Origin: a virus
Virus record (IMG/VR): IMGVR_UViG_3300032102_000006
Length of the DNA stretch: 49,729 bases
Direction: 5' to 3' (one strand)
The position numbers and the translations under genes were made by a program. Shown here piece by piece: positions 12,540-43,572 of the stretch; within the stretch, counting starts at the first letter, position 1; every line of letters starts with the position of its first letter. The notes under the pieces are model-generated. The model did no database searches. It saw nothing but the letters and a program-made list of their open reading frames with translations, and was not told the origin of the DNA.

Positions 12540-12545
12540 TAAATA
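12540..12545 (+). promoter_or_regulatory. TAAATA late-promoter-like box at the head of the modification cluster
   Basis: Intergenic TAAATA upstream of a GGAG SD (12570-12573). Confidence 0.5.
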
Positions 12546-12579
12546 TTAAACTAGCATTTAATACATTATGGAGATCTGG

Positions 12580-12939
12580 ATGGATGACAAACTAAAAGCG
12601 GCCCTTGAGTTTAGCAACTACCGCTTAACACTGAGCAATCAACGACAAAATCTCAAACAACGAATGAATACCATGTTAACCATTGGCTACATGAGTTCTC
12701 TCTTTACGGCAAAAATCGAACTACTTAATTTTGTAAAACAACTTATCGATCTCGGTGCAGAACGATATATCATTTTGGATGATAATGAAACTCCGGTATT
12801 GGTAAGCAATCTTCGAGAATTTCACGAAAAACTGTTTAGTGCCTACACTGAAGCACTTAATGAATACTATGTCGAATCCGAAAAGCTAAAAAAACAAAGA
12901 GACACTCGGGGGCTAGTTGGAGCCAATGAAGAAGTTTGA
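12580..12939 (+). CDS. Hypothetical phage protein
   Basis: The ORF track starts at 12568, but the GGAG SD favours ATG 12580 (MDDKLKAALEFSNY). Looks helical; no motif recognised. Confidence 0.7.
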   Translation: MDDKLKAALEFSNYRLTLSNQRQNLKQRMNTMLTIGYMSSLFTAKIELLNFVKQLIDLGAERYIILDDNETPVLVSNLREFHEKLFSAYTEALNEYYVESEKLKKQRDTRGLVGANEEV

Positions 12940-13822
12940 TTCGGGTATATTGCTAATTGCCTACAACAATGGTAAAATAGCATATGAAAAATTAGCACTG
13001 ATTGCGGCTAGATTAGTCAAGTTGCATATGAAGCACAACCATGTTACACTGCTAACAGACACGCCAACACTGGCAGCACTTGAAGCAGCTCTGCCCGTTG
13101 ACTTGTTTGTTAAAACGTTCGATCACATTATTGTAGAAGATATTGCACACGAACAAAATACAAGGACACATAGAGACAGTCCTTGGACAGAATTTACAAC
13201 GCAGTTTAACAACAAAAACAAACATAGCATTTTTGAAAAAAGTCCTTACAACAAGACCTTGATGATTGATGTGGACTACTTAATCGGTAACAACACCTTT
13301 GATGCAATATTTGAAACTGATACTGAAATAGCCATGTATAAGGATGCTATTAGTGTTAGAAACTACAAACCTAGAATATGGGAACAAAAACTGCACCCAG
13401 ACGGTATAGACATGTGGTGGTCAACTGCTATCTACTGGCGCGCCGACAGCGAAACAGCAAGATTATTTTTTGATCTTTGGGAGCATGTCAAGGAAAATTA
13501 TAGCTACTATAAATGGCTGTATAAGTTTCCAGGCGTTCTATTTAGAACAGACTATGCGGTTAGTATAGCAGCACATATTTTAAATGGACATAAACAGGGG
13601 AATTTAATACACGAATTACCTGGAAAGACCATGCGGTTCAGTGAGCAAATAGATGATATTGCTAGCGTTGATGGAGCAGCAGATTTACTTTTAGTTTGCC
13701 CTGACCCTAAAGAATTATGGAAAAATATTGCCAGCAGAATTAAAAATGAAAACGTTCACGTTATGAACAAGATGGCAATATTGAGACACTACGAAAAAAT
13801 TAAACGTATAATATATGAGTGA
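12926..13822 (+). CDS. GT-A fold (GT8-like) glycosyltransferase-like protein
   Basis: GILLIAYN start, SPYNKTLMIDVDY (DxD) and FRTDYAVSIA. GGAG SD before ATG 12926. Confidence 0.65.
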   Translation: MKKFDSGILLIAYNNGKIAYEKLALIAARLVKLHMKHNHVTLLTDTPTLAALEAALPVDLFVKTFDHIIVEDIAHEQNTRTHRDSPWTEFTTQFNNKNKHSIFEKSPYNKTLMIDVDYLIGNNTFDAIFETDTEIAMYKDAISVRNYKPRIWEQKLHPDGIDMWWSTAIYWRADSETARLFFDLWEHVKENYSYYKWLYKFPGVLFRTDYAVSIAAHILNGHKQGNLIHELPGKTMRFSEQIDDIASVDGAADLLLVCPDPKELWKNIASRIKNENVHVMNKMAILRHYEKIKRIIYE

Positions 13823-14654
13823 AGGTTATTTAATTGTTGGCTGTTCTATGAAGAACCTAACGCAAGTCGAACTGCTGGCTAAAAGCATTAGACTTGCAGA
13901 TCCTGCACGTCCTATTAGTATTATTAGTCACGAAGCCGGCCTTAAAGATTATATCTTACATATCGATCAGGAAATACTTTTTGAAAGCAAGCGAATGAAC
14001 AGTACCGCTGTATACTTTCACTCATTGTTAAAAAGCCCTTATGAAAAAACAATAGCGTTTTTGCCTGATCAGCTACTGATAGATTTTAATACAGATGTAT
14101 GGGAAAACTTGCGAGGGATGAACAGTATTGTAATTCCTAAAACAGTTAAGAGTTTTAACGGCGAAATAATTTCAGCAGACCAAACAGCTCGCGGTCAAAT
14201 AGAACAACAAAGTTTTAGTGAACAGTCGGTTTTAAATGCTATATTTTTTAATCGAAACAAAGCATGTGATTATATTTTTGGTATGTGTAGCTTGCTAGCA
14301 CATAATTATAACCAAAATACTTTTATAGATTTTTTTGCAGGACAAAATCATAGTATGCCAAGTTTTCCTGAGAAAATATGGCCATCGTGGTTATTATCTA
14401 TGATGGCACAGATGTTGCCTGCTAAAATTACTAAATTTAATTTTTTAGAATGTGTTGATTTAAGTCCCCGAGAGCAGTGTTATACTAATAATAATTGGGC
14501 AACAAAAGCATGGCCTGAGTTTTTGTCATGCTGGGTAAACGATACTGGCAGTATAAAAATTGAAAATTTTGTACAGACTGGCTTGGTTAAGTATAATACA
14601 AGTAGTTGGTTAACTGATGCAAATTTAACCAATCTACGCCGCAGATATATTTAA
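13815..14654 (+). CDS. Degenerate GT8-like glycosyltransferase paralog
   Basis: GYLIV...LAKSIR...SPYEKTIAFLPDQL parallels the upstream gene, but DxD is reduced to LPD. Confidence 0.5.
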   Translation: MSEGYLIVGCSMKNLTQVELLAKSIRLADPARPISIISHEAGLKDYILHIDQEILFESKRMNSTAVYFHSLLKSPYEKTIAFLPDQLLIDFNTDVWENLRGMNSIVIPKTVKSFNGEIISADQTARGQIEQQSFSEQSVLNAIFFNRNKACDYIFGMCSLLAHNYNQNTFIDFFAGQNHSMPSFPEKIWPSWLLSMMAQMLPAKITKFNFLECVDLSPREQCYTNNNWATKAWPEFLSCWVNDTGSIKIENFVQTGLVKYNTSSWLTDANLTNLRRRYI

Positions 14655-15599
14655 ATGGACAACAACACAGAATTTGACGTACAAAAAACTATTCTTAAAA
14701 AGAAAGATGTTAAGAGTAGTAAATTCTTTGTTGGCTATAATAAAATAACAGGGCAAGTTTATTCAGTATCGCCTGCCGAACCTGAAAACCTCCCATTTTT
14801 TGAAACAGATAATTACCTATTAGTTAAAAATTTATTTGATAATAAAATAACTTTACATAAACTCAAAGCGGTAAGAAACAATCTTGGTCAACTAGTACTA
14901 GCAGAAAAAACATCAACGCGCCGCAGCGAATTTAATTATATCACCGCCGAAATAAATTTACAAGCATTTGTGCAGTTGTCCTGTGATTTAGTTTCTAAAC
15001 GAATAACAATTAAATTTATTGACGAATTATTTAAATTAGCTTATACTAATAATAGTATAAACGAAGAAATACTAGGGTCGTTGCCGGACTATATCGAAGT
15101 CAATTGTTTTAATGCATTTGATCCCGGAAAGTTCTCCGGAAAGATTATAATAGATGTTGATGCCATATTTAAAAATAAACAGCAAAGTATACAGGCTGTT
15201 TGGTTGCCAGATGACCCTGTTGAATTTAGCCAACTAAAGTTTATGCATTATGATTTTGGATTAAAGATAAGTCCAGAATATCAAGATAGGCCGTCAGAAG
15301 CTAAAAATAAAAACGAGCGTCCTGTTATTGTTTATAAACAAACTCAAAACCAATTAGAGCTACAAAGTTTAATAGAGCAAGCTGATAATTTTAGACTAGC
15401 TGCAACCATCGAGTTCTTTATAACAGAGTACAACGACCCTGGTAAAATATTAGATGTTGTAAGTGTAAATAGCAGTAGATTAAATGATTACGCAAAGACA
15501 ACTATTTCTTTAGCAACAAATAAACCAGTACAAGTAATTTCCAATTATGATTATTTGTCTATTAAGGATGTAAATGAAAGCACCTATTACGAATTTTGA
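14655..15599 (+). CDS. Hypothetical protein
   Basis: 314-aa ORF abutting its neighbours; no recognisable motif. Confidence 0.7.
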   Translation: MDNNTEFDVQKTILKKKDVKSSKFFVGYNKITGQVYSVSPAEPENLPFFETDNYLLVKNLFDNKITLHKLKAVRNNLGQLVLAEKTSTRRSEFNYITAEINLQAFVQLSCDLVSKRITIKFIDELFKLAYTNNSINEEILGSLPDYIEVNCFNAFDPGKFSGKIIIDVDAIFKNKQQSIQAVWLPDDPVEFSQLKFMHYDFGLKISPEYQDRPSEAKNKNERPVIVYKQTQNQLELQSLIEQADNFRLAATIEFFITEYNDPGKILDVVSVNSSRLNDYAKTTISLATNKPVQVISNYDYLSIKDVNESTYYEF

Positions 15600-16545
15600 C
15601 ATAGTTTTTATCAGTTATGATGAACCAAATGCTGATAAAAACTATGCAGACTTATTAACAAAAGCGCCCTGGGCAAAAAGAGTGCATGGGGTTAAAGGCT
15701 TTGACGCCGCACACAAAGCAGCAGCTCGAGTGGCAACTACTGATAGATTTATCACCGTCGATGCTGACAATATTGTGCGAGATGAATTTTTTACTATTGA
15801 ACTTGACATGGACAAGATTGGTCGTCACGATGTTATCAGTTGGGCAGGCAAAAATATTGCCAATGGTCTAGTCTACGGCAACGGTGGTATTAAACTATGG
15901 CCCAAGCACGTAGTCGAACAAATGAAAACACACGAAGCGGCCGAGGACCCAAAGGCACAAGTAGATTTTTGTTGGGACATTTATTATTTTCAAATGAACA
16001 ATATCTACTCTGATGTGCATAATAATGCTAGTGCTTATCAAGCGTTCAGAGCAGGCTTTAGGGAAGGAATTAAACTTTTGTTAGAAGGTGGACAGCCCGT
16101 CGATCCAAGACTACTTAAACAGAGAGTGCATGATAGAAACTACAAGCGAATGTTAGTTTGGTCTAGTGTCGGAGCAGATGTTGATAACGGACTTTGGATG
16201 CAGTTTGGTACTAGACTAGGGGCGTACATGTCTAACCTAGCTAGAGATGAGTTTGACTTTACGCTAGTTAGAGATTATGACTGGATTGACGGATTTTGGG
16301 AAGCAAGCATACAACCGCAGTTTGTTGGCACTACTGGGAAATGCACAGCAACAGGCTGGACTTATGATGTTGAGTTGTTAAAAAAGAAAATATTTACATT
16401 TGGCGAAACACTACGCAGCAGACTAGGTTTGGAAATTGCAGAGTTAGATGCTAACGGTAGCCGCATGTTTAAAGAAAGTTGGATCAATCCTCCTCGCCTT
16501 GGTGCATTAGTAAAAGAAACAGAAGTGGATAATAGCATACAATGA
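15574..16545 (+). CDS. Glycosyltransferase-like protein (NGLVYGxGG family, copy 1)
   Basis: DIVFISYDEPNAD, FITVDADN (DxD), NGLVYGNGGIKLW and AFRAGFRE. Confidence 0.6.
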   Translation: MKAPITNFDIVFISYDEPNADKNYADLLTKAPWAKRVHGVKGFDAAHKAAARVATTDRFITVDADNIVRDEFFTIELDMDKIGRHDVISWAGKNIANGLVYGNGGIKLWPKHVVEQMKTHEAAEDPKAQVDFCWDIYYFQMNNIYSDVHNNASAYQAFRAGFREGIKLLLEGGQPVDPRLLKQRVHDRNYKRMLVWSSVGADVDNGLWMQFGTRLGAYMSNLARDEFDFTLVRDYDWIDGFWEASIQPQFVGTTGKCTATGWTYDVELLKKKIFTFGETLRSRLGLEIAELDANGSRMFKESWINPPRLGALVKETEVDNSIQ

Positions 16546-17939
16546 CTTCTATAAAACAATTTAAACAGCAACTCGATGCAGTAAGCCCTAGTTTTTGTGT
16601 TGCAAAGTGGAAACAGGTGACATTGCATTTACAAACCGGACACAATCATAGTTGCCATCACCCAACTGTACATAAAATCCCGCTGGGAGAAATTGCAATA
16701 AACCCAGCAGCACTGCACAATACTAATTTTAAAAAACAACAACGCAAGAAGATGTTAGAAGGAACTCGTCCTTCTGAATGTGAATATTGCTGGAAAGTAG
16801 AAGACAGTCATGAAGATGCAATAAGCGACCGTGTATGGAAAAGTCATGATGTGTGGGCACAGCCTTACATGCAAGAAGTTGCAGCATTGCCGTGGGATGC
16901 AGACATTAGTCCTAGCTACTTAGAAGTTAGCTTTAGCAGTGTTTGCAATTTTAAATGCAGCTATTGCACTCCGCAGGTAAGCAGCGCATGGATGGACGAA
17001 ATTAAACAGTTTGGCGCATATCCTACACATGATCGATTTAATGACATCACTTGGTATAATGCAGCAGGGCAAATGCCTATCCCTCATAATCAAGATAATC
17101 CCTATGTAGATGCGTTTTGGGCATGGTGGCCCGGCATTTACAAAGAATTAAAACATTTTAGAGTCACAGGTGGAGAGCCATTGTTAAGTAAGGACACATT
17201 TAAAGTTCTTGATTATATTATAGAGAATCCTAATCCAGACCTTGATTTAAGTATCAATAGCAATATGTGTATTCCTGAAGCACTACTTGAAAAGTTTATA
17301 GAAAAAGTAAAAATAATTTGCAGCGAGAAAAAAGTTAGACGATTTAAGATATTCACAAGTGCAGACGCGCACGGCGCAGCAGCAGAATATATTAGAAACG
17401 GTTTAGATTATACTGCATGGTTGGCTAATATACAACGGGTATTAGACCAAGTCCCAGAATGCACTTTTACAATTATGAGCACGTATAATTTACTCAGCGT
17501 TGCAAGTTATTTAAAATTCTTAGAAGACGTTGTTGCTATTAAGAACAAATACGGCGGCGCAACCGGTCGCCCTAATCCTTTAATATTAGATACTCCTTAT
17601 TTGAGATACCCAAGCCATCAGTCTATTTTTCTTTTGCCAAACAATGCGGCAGAATTTATACAAGAACAAGTTGATTTTATGCAACAGCACATGGAAGATC
17701 GTAATGATCCTGCAAAAATAAACACAGGGTTTGCAGAATGGGAAGTTGAAAAGTTTAAGAGAATTTTAGAACTAATGCGATCAAAGGATGAAATTCAGGG
17801 CAGAGTATTGCAATCGCATAAAGATTTTGTTGCATTTGTTGATGAGCACGATCGTCGTAGAGGAACAGATTTTAAAAAGACTTTTCCAGAGTATGTAGCA
17901 CTTTACGACTACTGGAAAGCAAACCCAATAACAGGTTAA
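16542..17939 (+). CDS. Radical SAM enzyme with N-terminal Twitch/SPASM-like domain
   Basis: CNFKCSYC and TGGEP. N-terminal FCVAKW...SCHH...CEYC. Confidence 0.9.
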   Translation: MTSIKQFKQQLDAVSPSFCVAKWKQVTLHLQTGHNHSCHHPTVHKIPLGEIAINPAALHNTNFKKQQRKKMLEGTRPSECEYCWKVEDSHEDAISDRVWKSHDVWAQPYMQEVAALPWDADISPSYLEVSFSSVCNFKCSYCTPQVSSAWMDEIKQFGAYPTHDRFNDITWYNAAGQMPIPHNQDNPYVDAFWAWWPGIYKELKHFRVTGGEPLLSKDTFKVLDYIIENPNPDLDLSINSNMCIPEALLEKFIEKVKIICSEKKVRRFKIFTSADAHGAAAEYIRNGLDYTAWLANIQRVLDQVPECTFTIMSTYNLLSVASYLKFLEDVVAIKNKYGGATGRPNPLILDTPYLRYPSHQSIFLLPNNAAEFIQEQVDFMQQHMEDRNDPAKINTGFAEWEVEKFKRILELMRSKDEIQGRVLQSHKDFVAFVDEHDRRRGTDFKKTFPEYVALYDYWKANPITG

Positions 17940-17943
17940 AATT

Positions 17944-18825
17944 ATGAGCAAAGTAAGAATAGCATTTTGCATAAGTGGTCAGCCCAGGACCTGGCGCAAA
18001 TGTGTACCTGGCTGGAAAAAGTTTGAGCAACGCTTGAAAGAAATAACAGGTGCCGAGCAGGTTGATTATTTTTGCCATGCTTGGGACTTTAACACTCCTC
18101 CGCATGTTGTCTTGGCTAACGCTGTTGATAATACTGGTATAGCTGAAACTTATACCAGTGTAAAAGGAATTACAATTAGTCAGCAGGAAAAAGAAGATTT
18201 AATTGCAGAAATAAATCCCGTTAGTATCAAATGGGAAAACGAATCTGTAAGCAAGCGAAGGTCCTCTATAACATGGGAACGCGGCACTGTAAATGCAAAT
18301 GAACATGGACAGCCGGTTATGGCCTGGGCTGCAAGTCAATTCTATGGAGTTATGCAAGCTGCTGAACTTAAAAAAACATACGAATACGAAAACTTTTTTA
18401 CATATGATTATGTTTTTAAATTGAGATTTGATTTATTTTTAGACGATCATCAAATTGATTGGTTTTTTAATAAGGACAGCGGAGACTTTGTCGAGCCAGC
18501 ACATAATACAGTTTATACCTGTCATACTAGAAAAGATCCTGCACAATTCCCCTTTCACAGATTTGGTGACATATTTTGGTATAGCGATAGTTATTCTTTT
18601 GATAAAATCTCTAGGTTCTATGACTGGCTACCTTGTATAGGTTCTAGAAGCTTTATTGGCAATGATATTGCTACTGAGCATGTGCTTTATTTTTATGCTA
18701 AAATGTTAAAAATGTCAGTCAGGGCAATATCCATCGATCCGAAAATATTTAGACAATCAAATTATTTAGAATTAAAACAACAAGCAGGATTTGCAGAAGG
18801 ATTAGGCGGCCATGAGCTTATATAA
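17944..18825 (+). CDS. Putative glycosyltransferase-like protein (SGQPR family, copy 1)
   Basis: IAFCISGQPR, DYFCHAWD, YDYVFKLRFD and GDIFWY. Confidence 0.5.
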   Translation: MSKVRIAFCISGQPRTWRKCVPGWKKFEQRLKEITGAEQVDYFCHAWDFNTPPHVVLANAVDNTGIAETYTSVKGITISQQEKEDLIAEINPVSIKWENESVSKRRSSITWERGTVNANEHGQPVMAWAASQFYGVMQAAELKKTYEYENFFTYDYVFKLRFDLFLDDHQIDWFFNKDSGDFVEPAHNTVYTCHTRKDPAQFPFHRFGDIFWYSDSYSFDKISRFYDWLPCIGSRSFIGNDIATEHVLYFYAKMLKMSVRAISIDPKIFRQSNYLELKQQAGFAEGLGGHELI

Positions 18826-19678
18826 TTTTAAACACGAAGCAAGCGACAAAGAAAATATTTTTGTAAAACCTTTTAAGATTGCTGTCTGTCTCAGCGGGCA
18901 ACCCCGACACTGGAGAACAGCAGCAAAAAATATTCATCACTTTTTTGAACAGCAAAAAATTCACCACGATCTCGGCACAGAAATGAAAGTTGATTACTTT
19001 ATTCACACATGGGATACAAACACTTGGAGGAAGCCAAAAACAGATCATGCAGTGTTTGAAAATGTTAAACATGAAGATGCCCGAGATATACATAAGGAAT
19101 TTAATCCTAAAGGCATGATATGCGAAGAATTTATACAAGATAACTTTGCATTAGCATGGGATCCGATGTTTTATAGCTTTGCTCGCAGCATAAGATTAAA
19201 AAGAGAATACGAACTTGCAAATGATATGCAATATGACATTGTGATCAAGGCAAGATTGGATACGATTTACAATCCAAATTGGACTATGAATTACGGGCGT
19301 TGCTATCCTGGAGTATGCTATACTAGTACTCCGATTACAAAATTCCCAAGTGAATTTAATTACAATAATTTCGACGATGTATTATTCTGGGCCAACAGTC
19401 CTACTATGGATCTAGTTGGAGAACTTTATAATAACAATTTACGTTTATTAAATAGTCAGTATAAACTACAAAATGAAGCCGGCACGGATCTAGATCCTGC
19501 ATTATACTATGGCCCTGGTTGTTCTATATACAAATACCTAACAGACAACGGGCTTCATCCTGAAGGTAGTAGAATTATAGAATATGCCGTTGTTAGAGAA
19601 ACAGCAACGACTGAAAATTTAGATAGCATTATTGATTATGACGAAATTAGAAAAAAATGGTTTGAGTGGTACATTTAA
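18812..19678 (+). CDS. Putative glycosyltransferase-like protein (SGQPR family, copy 2)
   Basis: IAVCLSGQPR, DYFIHTWD, YDIVIKARLD and DDVLFW; clear paralog of the previous gene. Confidence 0.5.
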   Translation: MSLYNFKHEASDKENIFVKPFKIAVCLSGQPRHWRTAAKNIHHFFEQQKIHHDLGTEMKVDYFIHTWDTNTWRKPKTDHAVFENVKHEDARDIHKEFNPKGMICEEFIQDNFALAWDPMFYSFARSIRLKREYELANDMQYDIVIKARLDTIYNPNWTMNYGRCYPGVCYTSTPITKFPSEFNYNNFDDVLFWANSPTMDLVGELYNNNLRLLNSQYKLQNEAGTDLDPALYYGPGCSIYKYLTDNGLHPEGSRIIEYAVVRETATTENLDSIIDYDEIRKKWFEWYI

Positions 19679-20612
19679 AAAAGACAGCTTGTTTGATTCG
19701 ATCAACAACGCAACAGACACGCAAGAACCTTTAGAAATTATTGTCGATGGAGACAGTTGGGTTTTTGGTTGTGAAATTGTAGATCCTGTTCTAGTTGAAA
19801 AACATGGAGAGGATTTGTTTCCTGGATATTACGATTTCGAAGAAGCCAATGACAAATACAGACGAACGAAGATATTTTCCTATCACTTAAGTAAAATGCT
19901 CAACTGTAAAGTCACTAACTTGTCGTGGCCTGCAGACGACAACGGTAGTATTTTGCGCAGGACTATGGAGTATATTGCTAGCGAATACATCGCCCTTGGG
20001 CGCAGCACAAAAAATCTATTAGTAATGATTGGCTGGTCTAGTCCTGAGCGCAATAGCTTTTGGTTTAAAGATCAGGATATGAGTCATTTGTTTAGACTAT
20101 GGCCGCAAGTTAGACATTTTGATCACCCTGCACAGGAAAAGTTTTGGGAACTTTACGTATCCTACCTATGGAATCCCGAAGAATACATTACCCGTTATGT
20201 TTTTAACGTTGTTCAGTTTCAGAATTTCTGTAAGGCACATGATATATCTTGGCTCTGCTGGAATAGCTTTTATCAGTCGCCGGGAAAAAATCCTCAAGAC
20301 TGGCATGACTTGGATATTCGACAAGAGATAGAACAACTGTTAGGAGCAACTGGCGGATATCAATATCAAGAAACTACTAGACCATCAGAGCGATCTGCTC
20401 GCACTAATAACTATTTGAATTTATGGAACACAGTTGATCCTGTTAGATTTTACAAAAAAGATCAGCCGTGTAGCACATTTAAGAGCTATGTAGAACAACC
20501 GCATTTAAAAATAAAACAAGTACTAAACGGTTGGCACCCAGGGCCAGACAGTCATCATGCATGGGCAAAAGAACTTGTTAGATACATTAAAGAACACAAT
20601 TTGCTTCCATGA
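19632..20612 (+). CDS. SGNH/GDSL-fold hydrolase or acyltransferase-like protein (start uncertain)
   Basis: VDGDSW block I, IGWSSPER and C-terminal WHPGPDSH..WA. Confidence 0.65.
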   Translation: MIMTKLEKNGLSGTFKKDSLFDSINNATDTQEPLEIIVDGDSWVFGCEIVDPVLVEKHGEDLFPGYYDFEEANDKYRRTKIFSYHLSKMLNCKVTNLSWPADDNGSILRRTMEYIASEYIALGRSTKNLLVMIGWSSPERNSFWFKDQDMSHLFRLWPQVRHFDHPAQEKFWELYVSYLWNPEEYITRYVFNVVQFQNFCKAHDISWLCWNSFYQSPGKNPQDWHDLDIRQEIEQLLGATGGYQYQETTRPSERSARTNNYLNLWNTVDPVRFYKKDQPCSTFKSYVEQPHLKIKQVLNGWHPGPDSHHAWAKELVRYIKEHNLLP

Positions 20613-28880: not shown

Positions 28881-28890
28881 GCAAGTGCGT

Positions 28891-28896
28891 TAAATA
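28891..28896 (+). promoter_or_regulatory. TAAATA late-promoter-like box
   Basis: Lies in a 24-bp gap, 8 nt before ATG 28905, with no SD. Confidence 0.5.
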
Positions 28897-28904
28897 TAAG
28901 CACA

Positions 28905-30645: not shown

Positions 30646-30647
30646 TA

Positions 30648-35872: not shown

Positions 35873-37200
35873 GCGGACCGATAAAATGTTTTTACACCCT
35901 AGGCGGCTTAAATTACAAAAATGGTTTTGTAACTAGTTGCCCTCAACAGAGCGATCAATTACACATAATTGAAAATGCTAATCTAATTAAGCCTAGCGAT
36001 ATTTTAAATAGCAACGGCTTTAAAAACCACAGGTTGGAAATGATGTCGGGTAACTGGAGTAGCGGTTGTCATTTATGCAAAGATGTAGAGCAATCAAATG
36101 CAGGCCGCAGTATGCGAGCTGACTACTCGGCAATAGAAGATGACTATGATGTAACAACCGGTGCTATTAAGTTCACTGGCTTACGGCATGTCGAATTACG
36201 TTTTAGTAATGCATGTAATATGGCTTGTTTGCACTGTAGCGAAGTGTATAGCAGTGGGTGGATGTCTAAGCTCAAACATTATAACGCTGATAAAGAAGAC
36301 TGGTCTAATAATTTAATTCAACTAACCAAAACTATGCATAGGTCCAGTCCCGACGACGATATGAGTATAAGCATTAGCATAGAAGAGATGACTGAAATTG
36401 TCAACGACTTAAATGACAATTTTCCAAATATAGAAAAAGTAGATTTTGCAGGCGGTGAAGTATTGTACCAAAAACAGTTCTTTCCTTGTTTGGAATTACT
36501 AGGTCAACACCCAAACGCTAAAAACATGACGTTGTGTTTTCATTCTAATTTCAATGCTAAATTTGATCCTGTTCGTTTATACGAATTATTAAGTGTCTTC
36601 GGTAAAGTTACTATTATGTTGAGTATAGACAGCGGCAGAAACATATATCCTTACTTTAGAACTGGTAATTGGGATGTACTAAAATCTAATGTTGATACGT
36701 TCAAAGCACTAGACAAGAGAAAAAAGATGGATATAAATTTAGTTTGCACAACTAGCGTTTATCAAATTATGGACATCGAAAATATTATAGAGAGTTTTCT
36801 CAGTTTAGATATAGATTGGATTAAAAGTAGCATTGTATATACGCCTAAATATTTAAATCCAGCAATTCTTATGCATAATTTTGAAGAGTATATTCGACAA
36901 GACTTGCAAGCAGCACGCTTACTTGTTGATGCAGAAAAAATAAAAAGATTTGCTAACATAGAAGTGTATTCTAAGTTAAGATCGTGGAGGAAAGGAAAGC
37001 AACATTTTGCAGACATTGACAGTGCATATACTGCACTAGACGGGATAGAGGATTATATTTTTAATCATAAAGCAGAAGTAAATCAGTACGAAGCATTCTT
37101 AGTTTATATCAAGAAGACTGATTTGATTTGGAAACAAAATTTTAATGATCATTTTGTTAAGTACAAATACGAAAATAATAAAATAGTTAGGAAAGAATAA
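35869..37200 (+). CDS. Radical SAM enzyme with N-terminal Twitch/SPASM-like domain
   Basis: C...SC...CHLC, then CNMACLHC and AGGEV. Confidence 0.88.
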   Translation: MSGPIKCFYTLGGLNYKNGFVTSCPQQSDQLHIIENANLIKPSDILNSNGFKNHRLEMMSGNWSSGCHLCKDVEQSNAGRSMRADYSAIEDDYDVTTGAIKFTGLRHVELRFSNACNMACLHCSEVYSSGWMSKLKHYNADKEDWSNNLIQLTKTMHRSSPDDDMSISISIEEMTEIVNDLNDNFPNIEKVDFAGGEVLYQKQFFPCLELLGQHPNAKNMTLCFHSNFNAKFDPVRLYELLSVFGKVTIMLSIDSGRNIYPYFRTGNWDVLKSNVDTFKALDKRKKMDINLVCTTSVYQIMDIENIIESFLSLDIDWIKSSIVYTPKYLNPAILMHNFEEYIRQDLQAARLLVDAEKIKRFANIEVYSKLRSWRKGKQHFADIDSAYTALDGIEDYIFNHKAEVNQYEAFLVYIKKTDLIWKQNFNDHFVKYKYENNKIVRKE

Positions 37201-38039
37201 TGATGGATTTTACAGCATCAAATAAATTGTACGCATCTGCGGATCCTGCGTTAGGAATTAATCTTTATAAGTTCGACGGTTTAGATATACCATTCAACCC
37301 CGACTGGAAGAACATTGGTATTAATCTAAGCGGCGGCGCCGATAGTAGTTGCTTGTTAATGTTATTAAGTAAAATAATATTGCAAACAGGAAGCAAATGC
37401 CGTGTGCATGTAATTCAGCATCACCGTTGCTGGAATATTCGCCCATGGCAATCGTTTATTGCACAACAGGTATTTGATAAATTTCAATCTTTGTTTCCTG
37501 GCATAGAATACATACGCTATAAAAATTTTATCCCTGTGTCATTAGAATGGGGCGTTCTTGGTCCTATTACTAAAGATGCTAAAGGTCGTGATCGCAGCGG
37601 AGATCAGATTATAGTAGATGAATTTAACGAATACGTTATGTATAACGAAAACTTAGACGCTTTGTATAACGGTACTAGTCGCAACCCTGATGTTGATCTT
37701 CCGCACAAAATGATGAACAGAGAAAAGGCGCCCGAAGAAGGAGAATTACGCGACTTAATGCTTAAAAAGCGCAAGGGAATAGTTTTATTGCCATTTAAGT
37801 TTGTTCGCAAGGACTGGATCGTTGCAGAATTTTATCGACAAGGACTGGAAGATTTGTACAACACAACTCGTAGTTGTGAAGGAAACGTTGGTCATCCTAC
37901 TAGTGCAGACATAATCCTTTCGCTCGATGACTACAAGCCCGGAATGTACGTTCCGTTATGTAATGAATGTTTCTGGTGCTTAGAAAGAAACTGGGCAGAC
38001 GGCAAACTACAAGAAACACTTGCAAAATTCAATGACTAA
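37200..38039 (+). CDS. QueC-like PP-loop ATPase (adenine nucleotide alpha-hydrolase)
   Basis: NLSGGADS PP-loop and TRSC...CNECFWCLER Zn-site pattern. Confidence 0.7.
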   Translation: MMDFTASNKLYASADPALGINLYKFDGLDIPFNPDWKNIGINLSGGADSSCLLMLLSKIILQTGSKCRVHVIQHHRCWNIRPWQSFIAQQVFDKFQSLFPGIEYIRYKNFIPVSLEWGVLGPITKDAKGRDRSGDQIIVDEFNEYVMYNENLDALYNGTSRNPDVDLPHKMMNREKAPEEGELRDLMLKKRKGIVLLPFKFVRKDWIVAEFYRQGLEDLYNTTRSCEGNVGHPTSADIILSLDDYKPGMYVPLCNECFWCLERNWADGKLQETLAKFND

Positions 38040-39342
38040 TACTTTTTGCCCTATACCTTGGAACTTTCAAGCTATACGTGCCAATGGCGACGTGCGTATT
38101 TGCTGTCAAGCCAACGTAACTAATAACCAAGGTGTTATCCGCAAGGCAGATGGTTCTGCTTATAATGCAGGCCGTGATGACTTGCTCAAGGCACGTAATG
38201 CAGAACTAATGAAGATAGTTCGTAAAAATATGTTAGCGGGAGAGTGGAGTGAAGAATGTGGTCGTTGTAAAAGTGAAGAAGCAAACGGATTGGTTAGTAG
38301 ACGTAGTTATGAAAATCAACAATGGCCTATGCAGATTGAGACGGTTGCGAATAGAACAGCCAAGGACGGAAGCATAAACGTAAACGACTTTCCTGTACAT
38401 TACTATGACTTACGCTTTGGTAACTTCTGTAACTTGAAGTGCCGCATGTGCGGTCCAACGGATAGTAATGCCTGGTATGATGATTGGATCGAACTAACTG
38501 GCACTAGCGAGTTTAAAGATACAGGCGGTATCGTACAAATAACAAAAACAGATAAAGGCTACGATGTTCCCCAGTTTGATTGGTGCAATCACGAGCCATT
38601 TTGGGAACAGCTAGAAAAGAACATGCATAATATTGAGCATGTTTATTTTGCAGGTGGCGAACCAATGCTGATCGAACGACATTACGATTTCCTTGAGCGT
38701 TGCGTTAACAGTGGCGCAGCCGAGAAAATGGTTATTGAATACAATACTAATATGAGCACAGTGCCTACTAGAGTATTAAACCTTTGGGCACAGTTTAAGC
38801 AAGTGCGTGTAGGTGCAAGTGTCGACGGCATGGGCGCAGTGTTAGAATATCAACGCAATCCTGCCAAGTGGGGTAAAGTATTAGCAAACTTATACAAAGT
38901 CGATGCGCTACCTAATAACGTTATCAGTTGGCTTGCTTTTACAGTTACAGCTTATAATGTATTGCATATGATTGACTTTATGAAATGGAAGCTAACTGAA
39001 AGTAAATTTAAGCGAATAAACAGTAGCAACCGTAGACCTATAGTAACATATCATGTTGCCCATCATCCAAAGCATTTAAACATCCGTGTATTGCCTGCAG
39101 AATTTAAACAAGAAGTAGCTCACCGCTATGCTGAGTTTTTGCAATGGGTAGAACAAGGCAACTTCAATGAGCATGTCGAGCGTCATGCAAAAGAAATTGC
39201 TAATGGTGTAGTTAGTTATATGTCAAGTGAAGACTATCACGATAAACACTGGCACGAGTTTGTTAAATACACAGAAGATTTAGACCGTATCCGCGGCGAA
39301 TCTGTTACATATATAGAACCAGAATTTAAAAAATACATATGA
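38032..39342 (+). CDS. Radical SAM enzyme with N-terminal Twitch/SPASM-like domain
   Basis: FCPIPW...RICC...CGRC, then CNLKCRMC and AGGEP. Confidence 0.9.
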   Translation: MTNTFCPIPWNFQAIRANGDVRICCQANVTNNQGVIRKADGSAYNAGRDDLLKARNAELMKIVRKNMLAGEWSEECGRCKSEEANGLVSRRSYENQQWPMQIETVANRTAKDGSINVNDFPVHYYDLRFGNFCNLKCRMCGPTDSNAWYDDWIELTGTSEFKDTGGIVQITKTDKGYDVPQFDWCNHEPFWEQLEKNMHNIEHVYFAGGEPMLIERHYDFLERCVNSGAAEKMVIEYNTNMSTVPTRVLNLWAQFKQVRVGASVDGMGAVLEYQRNPAKWGKVLANLYKVDALPNNVISWLAFTVTAYNVLHMIDFMKWKLTESKFKRINSSNRRPIVTYHVAHHPKHLNIRVLPAEFKQEVAHRYAEFLQWVEQGNFNEHVERHAKEIANGVVSYMSSEDYHDKHWHEFVKYTEDLDRIRGESVTYIEPEFKKYI

Positions 39343-40067
39343 GCGATTTAATCTCAAATTACAAAACACTAGACTTGCTAACCGGAAGTGTTTTCCAAGT
39401 TACATGGGACCTTGGTCGCAGATGCAACTATGATTGCAGCTACTGCCCTGCAATTAGGCATGACAATTTTAGTTCCCATGCAAGTCTAGAAGAACTTAAG
39501 AAAAATGCAGACTTTGTTTTCAAATATATTAGTTTGTATATGAAATATCGTAACTATAAAGAAGCAAGCATCAGTTTTACTGGCGGTGAGCCAACAGTTA
39601 ATCCAAACTTTATTGAGTTTATTAAATATTTGAACGAAACGTATGAAACAAACTATAAAGATCAATTTGTATGTACATTTGCATTAACAAGTAACGGAGC
39701 AATGAGTCCTAAAATGGCAGATGCAATTGTTGAGCATATGAGTCACATTACAATAAGTTATCACACAGAAGCAGATCAAAGTATCAAGGACAATGTGCTA
39801 GAGAGAATTCAACAAATTTATACTAACGGTCCTGCAAAATGGTGCACCGTTAGTATAAATGTAATGTTTCACGCTCAGTATTTTGATGAATGTGTTAAAG
39901 TTTGCGAATTTTTGGATAGTAAAGGCATCGGTTATGTTCCGCGGGTCATAGGGGAAGAACCTGATAGCCGACCTAGTTTTGCACATAAATATTCCGATGA
40001 GCAGCTCAAGTGGATGAAAGACTACTGGGCAAAGAAAAATAAAAAGGTACAGGAACAACATGGCTGA
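39339..40067 (+). CDS. Radical SAM core domain protein (no own C-terminal auxiliary domain)
   Basis: WDLGRRCNYDCSYC, TGGEP and TSNG. Confidence 0.88.
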   Translation: MSDLISNYKTLDLLTGSVFQVTWDLGRRCNYDCSYCPAIRHDNFSSHASLEELKKNADFVFKYISLYMKYRNYKEASISFTGGEPTVNPNFIEFIKYLNETYETNYKDQFVCTFALTSNGAMSPKMADAIVEHMSHITISYHTEADQSIKDNVLERIQQIYTNGPAKWCTVSINVMFHAQYFDECVKVCEFLDSKGIGYVPRVIGEEPDSRPSFAHKYSDEQLKWMKDYWAKKNKKVQEQHG

Positions 40068-40497
40068 AGAGAAAAAACTTGGGATGAAGATCGGTCGCCC
40101 TTGCTGCGGCGGTAGAACAATGTGTTTTAGTAGCGGCGGCGAAAGCATCACTGGCACATTTAGCGGACAACGAGAATTTAAAAGCTGGCATTGCAGTGTA
40201 AATTGGTTCTTCTTTCATATAGAACAACAAACAGGTAATGTATTCCATCACCAAACTTGCCAAGCGCAGTTCGGTGAAACGCGAGGTCCTATCGGAACGC
40301 TACAAGATAGCGACAAGATATTAGAAGAACTAGAACGCAATTTACAAAATCAAACAATGCCTACTATTGTATGTCCCCGTAAAACTTGTGGTTGTGGTAT
40401 GTGTGCGCCGAAAAGTATCGAAAAAGAAGATTATAAGCGTGTATTTTTTGGACATGTAAACGATACTAGTATTTTTAATAAGACGTTAAACAAATAA
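40060..40497 (+). CDS. Stand-alone Cys-rich SPASM-like Fe-S domain
   Basis: PCCGGRTMC, WHC, TC and CPRKTCGCGMC. Has its own AGGA SD. Confidence 0.65.
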   Translation: MAEEKKLGMKIGRPCCGGRTMCFSSGGESITGTFSGQREFKSWHCSVNWFFFHIEQQTGNVFHHQTCQAQFGETRGPIGTLQDSDKILEELERNLQNQTMPTIVCPRKTCGCGMCAPKSIEKEDYKRVFFGHVNDTSIFNKTLNK

Positions 40498-40519
40498 TCG
40501 ATACATTGTTACATTTCTA

Positions 40520-41620
40520 ATGTCGAAATACTACTGCCCAATACCATTTCATCACATAGCAATGCGTCCTAACGGGACTATGCAACCGTGCTGCTATTTT
40601 AATCACCAAGATATTCCCCAAGATTTTACATTAGCTTATAAAAATTTGTTTTACGAACATCCGTTTATGAAACAAATGAGAGATGACCTTCGCAAAGACA
40701 AACCAGTTAACGGGTGTAGCAAATGTTATAAAGCAGAACAACTCACAGGCAAAAGTATGCGAACAGAGTATATTGCAGAAAGTCGATTGGGATTTAGTGA
40801 TACTCCTCCTTCAGAGCCTGTTCTAACATACATAGATTTAGCATTGAGTAATGTGTGTAATAATCGTTGCCGCATGTGTGGATTCGAATTGAGTACAAAT
40901 TGGTACAGCGATAGTAAGAAGTTGGGAAGAGAAATTCCTCACGGCCTTATACAACATAAAAACGATTTAACTGATATAGACTTTAGCAAGATTAACTATA
41001 TTAAAATGATCGGCGGCGAACCTTTGATGGAGCAGGACAAGTTTATCGCAGTACTCGAAAAATGTAAGTTAAACGAGTTAAACATCCTAGTAACTACAAA
41101 TGCAACAGTAAGGCCAAACAACAAGCTGCTGGCGCTATTACAACAGTGTAAAAAAGTTCGTTGGAATTTAAGTATAGATGCGTTCGGTCCGTTAAATGAC
41201 TTTTTGCGAAAAGGAAGTTACTGGGATGAAGTAAAAGAAAACATTGCATGGTTTGCAATCAACTTTTATAAGAACGTTAATATAAACGGGGTTGTTAGCA
41301 TTTACAACTCAAATAATTTTTTCGAGCTAACAGATTACACATCTAAACACCATCCGGAAGTTAATGTTAAATTCAATATGATAGATGGTGTTGATTATAT
41401 GCACCCCAAGCATTTGCCTGACTCGGCTAAACAGTACTTAATAAAAAAGATATCAGCACTTGATTATCCTGTAGCGCCCAGAGTAGTTGATGCACTCAAG
41501 CAACACGGCGACTTTAGTCTTTTCTTAAAAGAAGATACTGTTATGAATGAACTCAGAAACGAAACATGGTATGAACTTAATCCAGAGCTGTTTGAATTAA
41601 TTAAAGACTACTTGCCTTAA
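40520..41620 (+). CDS. Radical SAM enzyme with N-terminal Twitch/SPASM-like domain
   Basis: YCPIPF...PCC...CSKC, then CNNRCRMC and IGGEP. Confidence 0.9.
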   Translation: MSKYYCPIPFHHIAMRPNGTMQPCCYFNHQDIPQDFTLAYKNLFYEHPFMKQMRDDLRKDKPVNGCSKCYKAEQLTGKSMRTEYIAESRLGFSDTPPSEPVLTYIDLALSNVCNNRCRMCGFELSTNWYSDSKKLGREIPHGLIQHKNDLTDIDFSKINYIKMIGGEPLMEQDKFIAVLEKCKLNELNILVTTNATVRPNNKLLALLQQCKKVRWNLSIDAFGPLNDFLRKGSYWDEVKENIAWFAINFYKNVNINGVVSIYNSNNFFELTDYTSKHHPEVNVKFNMIDGVDYMHPKHLPDSAKQYLIKKISALDYPVAPRVVDALKQHGDFSLFLKEDTVMNELRNETWYELNPELFELIKDYLP

Positions 41621-41629
41621 ATATCATAC

Positions 41630-41863
41630 ATGACAACCATAACTGATTTGCCTTTGCGTCAATTGCAACTAGAAGCAGCCCGTGTAATAAGTACAATGCC
41701 TGCCACGAATGATAACATATACAAATTTAATATTGCTAGCAGACATAACAGCCAAGGCTGGTATATTGCGGCTATCGAATGGTATGTAAAAGAATACGGC
41801 GGCTTGCCAAGCGAAGTCGGACCCGGTAAAGACGTTAAAATGATATACGAACAAGATGAGTGA
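41630..41863 (+). CDS. Small hypothetical protein
   Basis: 77 aa filling the gap between two radical SAM genes. TAAATA 6 nt upstream; 8-nt overlap downstream. Confidence 0.65.
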   Translation: MTTITDLPLRQLQLEAARVISTMPATNDNIYKFNIASRHNSQGWYIAAIEWYVKEYGGLPSEVGPGKDVKMIYEQDE

Positions 41864-43046
41864 TGATTTAAAGAAAAGCGCATACGACTTTACTAAGATA
41901 CCATACAAGGATATAGTAAGGGTGGGACAAAGAACAATGCTATACCGTGACATGTTCACAGTAAGCTGGTTGCTAGGGCGCTACTGTAACTATCGTTGTA
42001 GCTATTGCTGGCCCTATGCCCGCAGTGATAAAAAAGATCATCGTCCTACACCTTTAATGCTTAAGACAGTTGACGAGATTAAACGTCAAGCTCGTGAACG
42101 TGGCTTTAATAGTTTCCACTTTAGTCTAAGTGGCGGCGAGCCAACATTCCACCCTGCTTACATTGACATCTTAAACTACTTGAATGATGACGTACACAAT
42201 ACAAACTATACCAGCGTACACATGACAAGTAATATGAGTCGTCCTTTAAAATGGTTTGAAGAAAAGTATGTGCCCGCAGTAAAGAACTTCCATCGTGCAA
42301 GTATCACAGCAAGTTGTCATCGCGAGCACGTGGATACAGACGACAAGGTTCGAGAGTTTGCCGATAAATTAGTCTTATGTCAGGACTACGATACACAGAT
42401 TACCGTTAACCAAGTTATGGTACCTGAACAGTTCTATGAGATATATGACTTAGCCCTTTACTTCCATGAACGTGGCATCAACGTTACACTAAAGCCACAA
42501 AGCGATCCTACTGCGAGTAGAGTTGTTGATGGCTACACTGATGACATGTTGGAAAAGTTGCACAACGGTATGCCGCAACGTGCCTTTACGGAACAAAAAG
42601 CAGCAGTAGCAGGACTAGTGGCTCGCCCAAAGCCTACATTTAAGATTGACGAAGCACGTACAATGCAAAAGCAAACTTACAGTCAAGGTGTGCCACAACA
42701 CTTCCAAGTAGAATTTATTGATAAAGATGGCGAGACTTGGTTCATGGATCAAGCAGAACGCTTTAACGCATTCAACTTTAACAACTTTAACAAGTGGGAA
42801 TGTAGCAGTGGTTACCGCAGTATTATTATTCGCGAACCTGATGGAACAGTTAAGCGTAGCTACAGTTGCAGCGAAGTTCCACTTGGTCATATCGAGACCG
42901 GATTCAAGTTATATGACAAGCCAATGCCTTGTGGCGGAACAAGTTGCGTAAGTAGTGCAGATAGTAAGATACCAAAAAGAGCACCTGGCACTAAATTGCC
43001 GCTGTTCCCAGGAGATACAACATATGAAGATACTAGTAGCAGGTAA
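41856..43046 (+). CDS. Radical SAM enzyme with C-terminal Cys domain
   Basis: WLLGRYCNYRCSYC and SGGEP. C-terminal WEC...SC...C....C. Confidence 0.9.
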   Translation: MSDDLKKSAYDFTKIPYKDIVRVGQRTMLYRDMFTVSWLLGRYCNYRCSYCWPYARSDKKDHRPTPLMLKTVDEIKRQARERGFNSFHFSLSGGEPTFHPAYIDILNYLNDDVHNTNYTSVHMTSNMSRPLKWFEEKYVPAVKNFHRASITASCHREHVDTDDKVREFADKLVLCQDYDTQITVNQVMVPEQFYEIYDLALYFHERGINVTLKPQSDPTASRVVDGYTDDMLEKLHNGMPQRAFTEQKAAVAGLVARPKPTFKIDEARTMQKQTYSQGVPQHFQVEFIDKDGETWFMDQAERFNAFNFNNFNKWECSSGYRSIIIREPDGTVKRSYSCSEVPLGHIETGFKLYDKPMPCGGTSCVSSADSKIPKRAPGTKLPLFPGDTTYEDTSSR

Positions 43047-43572
43047 CAGTGAGTACGGTCTAGCACAAGCTATCCGCCAAGAGTTAACAGACTATGATAT
43101 AACTTTTCTAAGTAGGAAAAGCGGATACGATTTAACTCGTGCAGAGCAACAGGCACGATTTGCCGAAGCAGCCGTTGACTTTGATGTTATTATATTATGC
43201 AGTGCTCTTTGGAAATTTAACCAAACGTTATTACTAGAAGCAGTTTATAAAAAGACAAAAGCAGAAGGAAAAAGCCCTTTGATTATCTGCATAGGTAGCA
43301 CTACTGATAGAGTAAACAAAGCGTCTGACTGGTTATATAGTGCAGAGAAAAAAGCTCTACGTGACTATGCTAATAGTCTCAGTCTATCCGGAGTATGGAA
43401 CAAATGTCCGCGTGTCACTTATATTAGTTTTGGTACATTAACTAATATGCAACATAAACATCCTGACAGAAAAACTTTACAGATAGAAAAAGCCGCTCAA
43501 TATATCAAATGGATAATAGAGCAGCCCGAAGGAACACACATCAACGAACTAAGTGTTGATCCTGTGCAGTAA
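43024..43572 (+). CDS. Short-chain dehydrogenase/reductase (SDR)-like protein
   Basis: MKILVAGNSEYGLA Rossmann start (ATG 43024), IICIGS and catalytic YSAEK (YxxxK). Confidence 0.75.
   Translation: MKILVAGNSEYGLAQAIRQELTDYDITFLSRKSGYDLTRAEQQARFAEAAVDFDVIILCSALWKFNQTLLLEAVYKKTKAEGKSPLIICIGSTTDRVNKASDWLYSAEKKALRDYANSLSLSGVWNKCPRVTYISFGTLTNMQHKHPDRKTLQIEKAAQYIKWIIEQPEGTHINELSVDPVQ

Follow-up and report, generated by a model that had tools for sequence, protein, structure and literature searches.

A radical SAM-rich gene island behind the tail-fibre genes of an uncultured jumbo phage and the tailored glycan that it probably makes

Directly behind the tail-fibre genes of virus record IMGVR_UViG_3300032102_000006 (IMG/VR) lies a block of 34 genes, nine of which encode radical S-adenosylmethionine (SAM) enzymes. 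What would a phage make with such a block, and on what would the product be placed? The stretch analysed here, called the window, has 49,729 nucleotides (nt) and was taken from the minus strand of a 90-kb viral record that is rated 25% complete by CheckV. A preliminary description made from the sequence alone had proposed that the block, hereafter the island, builds a heavily tailored glycan on capsid or tail fibres. Its inventory, the solubility of the products, the link to the structural genes and the glycan logic stood up in our analysis; the placement of the glycan on capsid or fibres was not established. The island probably makes a nucleotide sugar, builds a glycan with glycosyltransferases of the GT-A fold and tailors it by carbamoyl, methyl, acyl and radical chemistry, all in the cytoplasm. 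As an explanation of the whole, we tentatively favour, while rating it short of probable, a glycan placed on a virion protein, either the fibres or a 2814-amino-acid (aa) protein encoded upstream.

Setting of the island and a swap of sugar-nucleotide modules

The listing of open reading frames (ORFs) placed the island at 12568-43572 of the window, with 33 plus-strand ORFs of at least 80 aa and one 77-aa ORF. The 34 co-oriented genes behind the structural block, as previously described, were therefore confirmed. They mostly overlap or abut; gaps of more than 10 nt occur only three times, and one of these holds the 77-aa ORF. At the downstream end, the strand switches to the genes for thymidylate synthase (ThyA) and dihydrofolate reductase (DHFR). 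Upstream on the same record, the major head protein, the portal, an SbcC-like nuclease, a DNA ligase, a baseplate hub/lysozyme and a 1157-aa baseplate wedge protein are encoded. Since head, portal and baseplate genes are present, the contig is viral and belongs to a T4-type myophage; a cellular origin was ruled out by the head, portal, baseplate hub and wedge genes. The carrier is an uncultured freshwater jumbo phage of the PA5oct/Atu_ph07 type. A genome size of about 355 kb is implied by related records, which have 233-235 kb at a rated completeness of 65-66%. When 20 kb of the island were compared with 50,697 phage records by megablast, 0 matches were obtained.

Gene maps of 29 long loci of related phages were drawn, together with 60-kb views of two relatives (G001 and G002). 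In these maps, a fixed frame surrounds variable parts. With genes named by their first coordinate, the frame begins with the giant upstream ORF, the fibre genes, 12568, 12917, 13815, 14655, the GT-A gene 15574 and the radical SAM gene 16542 (N_Twi_rSAM family), after which a variable interior follows. The rest of the frame consists of the carbamoyltransferase, three GT-A genes, the methyltransferase-like gene and the radical SAM gene 32178, then variable radical SAM cassettes, a gene of the 41856 type, a small last gene and the strand switch. The head of the frame was kept in all 30 loci with a 12917 homologue, down to 43% identity, so the synteny with the structural block that the preliminary description had put up for checking holds in relatives. 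The gene set is common in such phages and variable between close relatives.

The conserved core comprises the carbamoyltransferase, the three GT-A proteins, the methyltransferase-like protein and one radical SAM enzyme, 32178, which is listed here with its family B neighbour:

27408-28880, + strand: O-carbamoyltransferase of the NodU/CmcH/TobZ type (Carbam_trans_N 127.3 bits, cut-off 24; Carbam_trans_C 177.8 bits, cut-off 27)
28905-29654, 29626-30645 and 30648-31334, + strand: three GT-A-fold paralogs of family A1 (paralogy, AlphaFold2 model)
31321-32178, + strand: class I SAM methyltransferase-like protein, a lead from ESM Atlas neighbours named methyltransferase (0.96-0.97)
32178-33350 (core) and 33347-34474, + strand: two family B radical SAM enzymes (Pfam Radical_SAM; mutual identity 27%)

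Some phages keep a precursor module, module A, which reads as follows in the window:

23646-24098, + strand: cupin, a weak match (Pfam/NCBIfam)
24070-25620, + strand: sugar-1-phosphate nucleotidyltransferase (NTP_transf_3) fused to an APH/choline-kinase-type kinase (Pfam, NCBIfam)
25578-26363, + strand: AroE-like dehydrogenase (116 bits, below the equivalog cut-off)
26314-27411, + strand: GatZ/KbaZ-like protein, with a partial match confined to the N terminus (first 95 or 125 residues) and a conserved tail ...EELRRRDPFIYR

In place of module A, other phages have an RmlC-like isomerase, three epimerase/dehydratase/reductases of the short-chain dehydrogenase/reductase (SDR) type and a split thiamine diphosphate-dependent E1/transketolase pair. 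Judged from the families, this replacement is a signature of nucleoside diphosphate-6-deoxyhexose and branched-sugar synthesis. That two alternative sugar-nucleotide modules feed one and the same core of transferases and tailoring enzymes is the strongest evidence for a carbohydrate as the class of substrate. The logic of a glycan cluster, as proposed in the preliminary description, is thus supported by the module swap and by the GT-A folds described below.

The carbamoyltransferase was found to be the most conserved island gene, and its relatives were present on 504 viral contigs. It scored 141.9 bits against NodU itself (NCBIfam NF041651, cut-off 1000), which places it in the same superfamily but in a different subfamily. 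Its earlier assignment was strongly upheld, and those of the nucleotidyltransferase-kinase fusion and the AroE-like protein were clear. The KbaZ-like, cupin, QueC-like and SDR proteins of the same inventory gave partial or weak matches only, and the methyltransferase-like protein stands as a lead.

A side observation was made at the start of the carbamoyltransferase gene. In 61 of 79 loci, a tail peptide, ...[RK][LI][EA]EL[RK]x[RK]DPFIY[KR] (27367-27411 in the window, the last 14 residues of 26314-27411), ends at this start, and its stop overlaps the start. The peptide is either a separate micro-ORF of 37-67 aa or, as in the window, the C-terminal tail of the GatZ-like protein. Among 52 different DNA versions, every codon varied synonymously, so selection acts on the peptide; a docking tail or small partner for the carbamoyltransferase is a possible role.

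Glycosyltransferase folds, tailoring enzymes and the radical SAM array

For 13 ORFs with no Pfam match, profiles were built from the related loci. Besides the three A1 paralogs of the core, the following glycosyltransferase-like proteins are encoded:

15574-16545, + strand: GT-A-fold protein of family A1, 45% identical to 29626 and a paralog of 28905, 29626 and 30648
17944-18825 and 18812-19678, + strand: two GT-A-fold paralogs of family A3 (AlphaFold2 pLDDT 86, predicted template-modelling score (pTM) 0.88)
22059-22847, + strand: third GT-A-like member of A3, recognised in its C-terminal half (hhalign probability 67%, E 5e-5, 143 columns)
12917-13822, + strand: candidate GT8-like glycosyltransferase, a lead only (nearest named ESM Atlas clusters Mannosyl_trans3/Glyco_transf_8, 0.95)

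The AlphaFold2 model of 29626 has a GT-A fold (pLDDT 81). The best matches of family A1 in a Foldseek search of the PDB were PBCV-1 A64R, the chondroitin polymerase K4CP, LH3 and SpsA, with probability 1.00 and template-modelling (TM) scores of 0.24-0.45. In 20 sequences of the family, D84 and D86 of the DxD motif were invariant. Family A3 gave 107 Foldseek PDB matches at E<=1e-3; those listed were GT-A-fold enzymes, mostly GT6 blood-group transferases, and the fold resembles GT6/GT31 enzymes. In this family, D155 was invariant and D163 was kept at 90% or more. The glycosyltransferase character claimed beforehand was therefore borne out by modelled GT-A folds and an invariant DxD.

The 12917 family has an invariant D118-x-D120 in 11 homologues; as a relative of the GT-A or SGNH profiles it was rejected, with no relation found by hhalign. 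Searches of PDB sequence profiles with the two glycosyltransferase families and the 12917 family returned nothing usable. None of the proteins reached a Pfam glycosyltransferase threshold, the best being 29626 with 19.8 bits against Glycos_transf_2 (cut-off 23.3), and they are not assignable to a CAZy-type family by sequence. Two further genes and the first gene of the island complete its head:

12568-12939, + strand: first island gene, 123 aa, highly conserved, with a TAAATA box 28 nt upstream, at 12540
13815-14654 and 14655-15599, + strand: two genes with no family assignment, syntenic in relatives and fast-evolving (23-63% identity)

No Pfam or PHROG match was obtained for any of the three. 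The identity of 12568 was 67-93% in relatives of the same clade and 26-52% in the most distant loci, above that of the fibre genes. Neither 13815 nor 14655 was related to the GT-A or SGNH profiles by hhalign, and both were rejected as such relatives. Of the "about nine" glycosyltransferase-like proteins counted previously, seven are thus supported, six by GT-A models or paralogy and 22059 by hhalign, and 12917 adds a GT8-like lead; 13815 and 14655 drop out.

The SGNH-like proteins lie between the A3 genes and module A:

19632-20612 and 20609-21454, + strand: two SGNH-like DUF6071 proteins (PF19547 above cut-off)
21451-22077, + strand: short protein with a partial SGNH-like stretch (hhalign 93% probability, 27 residues only)
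22837-23673, + strand: SGNH/GDSL-like protein with a GDS motif (hhalign 96% to the DUF6071 profile; weak Lipase_GDSL_2 match)

In the DUF6071 alignment, G9, S11, G15, N81, H258 and H264 were invariant and D240 was near-invariant, which is the SGNH catalytic pattern. Against PDB profiles, weak matches to SGNH esterases were obtained (E 0.2-0.8). Four SGNH proteins had been counted; 19632, 20609 and 22837 were retained, and with 21451 matching over 27 residues only, the number is three to four.

Nine radical SAM genes were found by six-frame Pfam and NCBIfam searches, all with a CX3CX2C motif, in agreement with the number given beforehand. By identity they form three families. A protein was counted as N_Twi_rSAM (NF033640) when its whole-protein score was above the curated cut-off of 170 bits; the four genes besides the five copies listed here scored 33-42 bits and are non-members. 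In addition to the family B pair given above, the array and the genes among it are:

16542-17939, + strand: N_Twi_rSAM copy 1 (342.9 bits; CX3CX2C at residue 135)
34475-35872 and 35869-37200, + strand: N_Twi_rSAM copies 2 and 3 (438 and 205 bits)
37200-38039, + strand: PP-loop ATPase-like protein (ATP_bind_3 E 0.0025, TilS N-domain E 3e-5, both below cut-offs)
38020-39342, + strand: N_Twi_rSAM copy 4 (379.2 bits)
39339-40067, + strand: short family C radical SAM enzyme, 242 aa, 34% identical to the N-terminal part of 41856
40060-40497, + strand: 145-aa protein with nine cysteines, directly after the preceding gene
40520-41620, + strand: N_Twi_rSAM copy 5 (222.5 bits)
41630-41863, + strand: 77-aa ORF, the 34th gene (ORF listing)
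41856-43046, + strand: family C radical SAM enzyme at the conserved island end (87-88% identical in phage relatives)
42955-43572, + strand: SDR-like protein at the conserved island end (weak NCBIfam matches)

In the N_Twi_rSAM proteins, the CX3CX2C motif lies at residues 113-147 and is preceded by an N-terminal cysteine-rich, twitch/SPASM-like domain, with weak Pfam SPASM matches at residues 6-95 and with C10, C28, C91 and C94 conserved in an alignment of 20 sequences. Family B enzyme 32178 was 64-87% identical in phage relatives. In 40-47 kb of relatives, 13-14 radical-SAM-like ORFs were seen, compared with nine in the window.

The N_Twi_rSAM profile collected 8493 representative clusters at E<=1e-30, and one island copy had more than 5000 close homologues in metagenomes. 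The top database representatives sit in similar phage-like arrays with carbamoyltransferase, DegT and SDR genes, and not in cellular loci. NF033640 is a catalogued family; here, it appears as a five-copy array next to two other radical SAM families. We found no member with an assayed reaction in the literature, and among ten relatives examined none was fused to a sugar-handling domain. As a side observation, many relatives consist of two or three copies fused in tandem (770-1400 aa); TPR or Sel1 repeats, present in some, were the only other fusions seen.

Another side observation concerns the short family C enzyme. Together, 39339 and 40060 match the 396-aa paralog 41856 in length and order, and G001 has a similar pair (233 aa and 112 aa). 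When 40060 was aligned with the C-terminal part of 41856 by pairwise BLAST, the match was not significant (E 0.36), and that the pair is a split form of the 41856 type is only a suggestion.

From family membership, enzyme by enzyme, we infer the following order of steps. A sugar or polyol would be reshaped by the cupin, the AroE-like and the GatZ-like enzymes. The fused kinase/nucleotidyltransferase would phosphorylate the sugar at C1 and couple it to a nucleotide, and seven or eight GT-A-fold transferases would build the chain on the acceptor. The carbamoyltransferase may then add an O-carbamoyl group, the methyltransferase-like protein a methyl group, and the SGNH-like proteins may add or remove acyl groups. 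Finally, the nine radical SAM enzymes would perform C-H chemistry on the sugars, such as oxidation, epimerisation, deoxygenation or C-methylation. With cassettes swapped between close relatives, each phage would have a different coat.

Acceptor of the glycan and likeness to known systems

No membrane segment was found in 37 products (Kyte-Doolittle 19-residue mean, cut-off 1.6), as the preliminary description had stated for the island. Moreover, neither the record of the window nor four relatives, up to 66% complete, had a PMT_2, Bac_transf or Glycos_transf_4 gene.

TAAATA boxes, which the island had been said to share with the structural block, were found 14-36 nt before the starts of 8508, 9117, 12568 and 28905, with 14 nt for 28905. 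They are concentrated in intergenic DNA, where 21 of 81 boxes fall within 8% of the 90-kb record, and the distance to the gene that follows, one of the head, the portal region, the fibres or the island, is 10-56 nt (mostly 23-44 nt). TAAATA is a candidate late-promoter core for this phage group. Scans for sigma-70 promoters and terminators gave results not usefully above those of shuffles. The island would be read through with the tail-fibre genes from these late-type boxes. The genes upstream of the island are:

18-8462, + strand: giant virion structural protein, 2814 aa, after the 1157-aa baseplate wedge gene (context, outside the island)
8508-9080, 9117-10037, 10037-11131 and 11134-12522, + strand: fibre module of four genes (PHROG tail-fibre and virion-protein matches)

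Over half of its length, the 2814-aa ORF shares about 25% identity with proteins annotated as virion structural in the jumbo phages PA5oct, Atu_ph07 and Phosso, and it keeps the same position in relatives. As a side observation, its sole Pfam hint is a weak carbohydrate-binding CBM_5_12 stretch (E 0.014), and one homologue in the PA5oct group is annotated as a 'chitin-binding type-3 domain-containing protein'.

The acceptor would most likely be a virion protein made at the same time, either the fibres or this giant protein. The position behind the fibre genes, the shared TAAATA boxes, the lack of a lipid-carrier or export function and the precedents of mycobacteriophages and giant viruses speak for it. 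So do the homology of the giant upstream ORF to virion proteins and A64R as the top structural match of family A1.

Giant viruses encode the glycosylation of their virions (PBCV-1 A64R and partners; Mimivirus fibril clusters). Mycobacteriophage capsid and tail-tube glycans are likewise virus-built on virions (Freeman et al. 2023, as cited in PMC12619734). These systems resemble the island in having their own soluble glycosyltransferases next to, or co-expressed with, structural genes, and in building glycans in the cytoplasm with no host secretory route; giant viruses also encode their own sugar-nucleotide pathways. Unlike the island, they have no radical SAM, carbamoyltransferase or SGNH proteins, and attachment to the virion is proven for them, whereas the island is known from its genes alone. 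Bacterial O-antigen and capsule clusters share with the island the sugar-nucleotide genes, several glycosyltransferases, O-acyl, methyl and carbamoyl tailoring, and conserved flanks around swapped interior cassettes. They differ, in the Wzx/Wzy or ABC-dependent types, by an initiating phosphoglycosyltransferase, a flippase, a polymerase, a chain-length regulator or a transporter, none of which the island has. To our knowledge, the number of radical SAM genes in the island far exceeds that of any described O-antigen or capsule cluster. We also know of no virus-encoded glycan pathway, in giant viruses or in the few phages that have one, that uses radical SAM chemistry or is this large or variable.

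In kind, the island belongs to what is already known as virus-encoded glycan clusters and as hypervariable fibre-region islands of aquatic T4-type phages, and its enzyme chemistry is widespread and uncharacterised. In T4-like pelagimyophages and cyanomyophages, a 'host recognition cluster' was described that is hypervariable and combines tail fibres with glycosyltransferases and radical SAM cassettes (PMC7029224, Zaragoza-Solas et al. 2020); there, the glycosyltransferase genes were read, without experiment, as modifying the host O-chain. A T4-like marine genome has 12 radical SAM genes and iron-sulphur assembly genes (PMC5332604), and one cyanophage has 13 glycosyltransferases (PMC12801897). 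None of these three papers tested function or described the N_Twi_rSAM/carbamoyltransferase/DUF6071 core or its bacterial counterparts. Like the cluster of PMC7029224, the island is large and non-syntenic and is found within the structural region, behind a giant structural gene and the tail fibres; its glycosyltransferases, sugar-nucleotide genes and radical SAM cassettes are likewise present in some relatives and missing in others. It differs in its carrier (a PA5oct/Atu_ph07-type jumbo phage of about 355 kb, compared with a 150-kb pelagimyophage), in its end (a strand switch, compared with the neck gene gp14) and in the N_Twi_rSAM array, carbamoyltransferase and DUF6071, which are undescribed there. 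As regards novelty, the earlier statement that no pathway of this composition has been characterised holds, but the uniqueness that it implied does not, with similar regions in PMC7029224 and PMC5332604.

It is conceivable, although we consider it rather doubtful in its entirety, that abundant jumbo phages of fresh and marine waters give their fibres, or some other virion protein, a coat of complex glycan that differs between strains and is made wholly in the host cytoplasm, and that the radical SAM enzymes of the island represent a new carbohydrate-editing class, which occurs also in bacteria of the phylum of a Bdellovibrionales metagenome-assembled genome (MAG). If true, a virus-made glycan edited by radical chemistry would be seen for the first time, and phage host range or defence evasion would have a further, new layer of variation. 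The identity of the product would assign a chemistry to a very large orphan enzyme family, N_Twi_rSAM, would explain the 'lipopolysaccharide (LPS)-like' genes in the tail-fibre regions of aquatic T4-type phages, and would tell whether glycan coats diversify in phages in a similar way to O-antigens in bacteria. The cultured Ralstonia jumbo phage RsoM2USA, with a cut-down version, and the bacterial homologues make the question experimentally reachable.

Cultured and bacterial counterparts and the rival explanations

The nearest carbamoyltransferase of a cultured phage (46% identity) is that of RsoM2USA (MG752970.1). In its genes 199-203, the carbamoyltransferase follows three DUF6071-like genes in a row and one N_Twi_rSAM (36% identical to 16542). 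This mini-module has five or six genes, compared with 34 in the island, and each of them bears the annotation 'hypothetical'.

A scan of species genomes with a single protein gave one match, a MAG titled 'Bdellovibrionales bacterium'. In the phylum of this MAG, N_Twi_rSAM genes were carried by 87 of 301 sampled genomes, often as several clustered copies on large chromosomal contigs. Four bacterial loci were examined, including G141:C1:1395000-1434999 and G242:C15:630000-669999. They contained homologues of 34475 (61-63% identity), 41856 (58-63%), 32178 (46-47%) and the A1 GT-A proteins (32-39%), clustered with homologues of the methyltransferase-like protein 31321 (25-31%), the SDR-like protein (26-39%), the PP-loop protein 37200 (24%, in G242) and the nucleotidyltransferase-kinase. 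As a side observation, as many as ten radical SAM genes stand in the bacterial arrays, and they belong to the three families of the phage. No carbamoyltransferase and no phage structural gene was seen in the four loci, and neither Wzx (Polysacc_synt) nor Wzy_C was found inside them. A prophage origin was ruled out: the phage genes outside the island have no homologues in these loci, which are therefore cellular. The high identity suggests, at the level of sequence comparison, gene exchange between these bacteria and phages.

Several points weigh against a late-made glycan on a virion protein. First, no result identifies a virion protein as the acceptor. The bacterial loci lie among multi-pass membrane proteins, with PMT_2 GT-C transferases in two of the four, and such genes beside the best cellular homologues (46-63% identity) point to an envelope glycoconjugate in cells. 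In the 41.6-kb stretch of RsoM2USA that was compared, there was no match to the glycosyltransferase-like or precursor genes of the island. O-antigen glycosyltransferases are also soluble, so soluble products do not exclude action on host lipid-linked intermediates. The likeness of family A1 to A64R is at the level of the fold only (TM 0.29-0.44, 14% identity), and nine radical SAM enzymes are many for one glycan. As for late expression, which was read from sequence, TAAATA is a short AT-rich word, and the T4 late-promoter consensus TATAAATA was depleted, with 1 found, on the other strand, compared with 6.6 expected.

Part of this evidence would fit a remodelling of the host envelope, a strong rival that we rate as somewhat less likely than a glycan on a virion protein. 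The phage enzymes would act at the cytoplasmic face on lipid-linked intermediates of the host O-antigen, capsule or another glycan; a host flippase and a GT-C enzyme or ligase would export the product, and the altered surface would block superinfection or the sticking of progeny to debris. The bacterial loci, which are chromosomal and not prophages, argue for it through core homologues of 46-63% identity amid membrane proteins and, in two of four, PMT_2 GT-C genes. It is also the published reading for the fibre-region glycosyltransferases of pelagimyophages (PMC7029224) and for cyanophage LPS genes (PMC12801897, PMC5332604), and the swapping of cassettes resembles the diversity of O-antigen loci. 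However, 31-47 kb is a large outlay for a jumbo phage that looks strictly lytic, and a fibre operon behind late-type boxes would come late for exclusion to pay. Furthermore, the phages have no initiating transferase, flippase or GT-C of their own.

A glycan on a virion protein has also to be weighed against radical SAM maturation of proteins, which is unlikely. In that case, a protein or peptide, such as the fibre proteins or a small precursor (12568 or the 77-aa ORF), would be cross-linked, epimerised or methylated by the nine enzymes with their auxiliary Fe-S domains, and glycosylation would be secondary. SPASM/twitch enzymes are best known as peptide maturases, and many of the secondary NCBIfam matches are of this kind, but all maturase matches are far below their cut-offs. 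The TPR and Sel1 repeats fused to some N_Twi_rSAM relatives bind proteins, and the island has small conserved ORFs. Neither a leader/core-like repeat nor a protease or exporter was found. Moreover, in phages and bacteria alike, the radical SAM genes travel with sugar-nucleotide, GT-A and carbamoyltransferase genes.

A diffusible small molecule, a glycoside resembling an aminoglycoside or nucleoside that would be set free at lysis or act in the cell on host or competitors, is less likely again and would surprise us. The AroE-like enzyme, the kinase/nucleotidyltransferase, the carbamoyltransferase (compare TobZ and NovN) and the twitch radical SAM enzymes (BtrN-type) do recall antibiotic pathways, and no acceptor protein has been identified. 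Against this, no scaffold-forming enzyme (a cyclase, polyketide synthase or nonribosomal peptide synthetase), resistance gene or exporter was found, a small glycoside would not need as many as seven or eight glycosyltransferases, and the linkage to the fibre genes is fixed.

The gene pair beyond the strand switch bears on the last alternative:

43574-44931, - strand: thymidylate synthase and dihydrofolate reductase (Pfam 352 and 88.7 bits; boundary, outside the island)

The ThyA homologue scored as a full-length canonical enzyme. In G001 and G002, the island ends at other minus-strand genes and the ThyA/DHFR pair is absent from this site; the pair is therefore a neighbour and not a component of the island. 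A thymidylate-synthase-family gene was absent from four related records, which are 35-66% complete, all records being incomplete. Hypermodification of DNA, by which hydroxymethylated phage bases would receive a tailored glycan that protects against restriction (compare T-even phages and the DNA-glycan systems described by Pyle et al. 2024), is very improbable: the T4-type ancestry, the adjoining ThyA and DHFR genes, known phage glycosyltransferases that build glycans on DNA (as cited in PMC12619734) and a hypervariability that would suit an arms race are outweighed by a canonical, DHFR-paired ThyA that is missing at the site in relatives, by no other gene of its family (which includes dCMP/dUMP hydroxymethylases) in those four relatives, by no DNA-binding or base-flipping domain seen, and by an island tied to fibre genes and not to replication genes.

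Two minor observations were made on the fibre module, the gene order of which was kept in the 30 loci. Gene 9117 has a Peptidase_G2/IMC C-terminal domain. The last gene, 11134-12522 (462 aa), is absent from most relatives and present in some at 48-60% identity, and its neighbours are syntenic.

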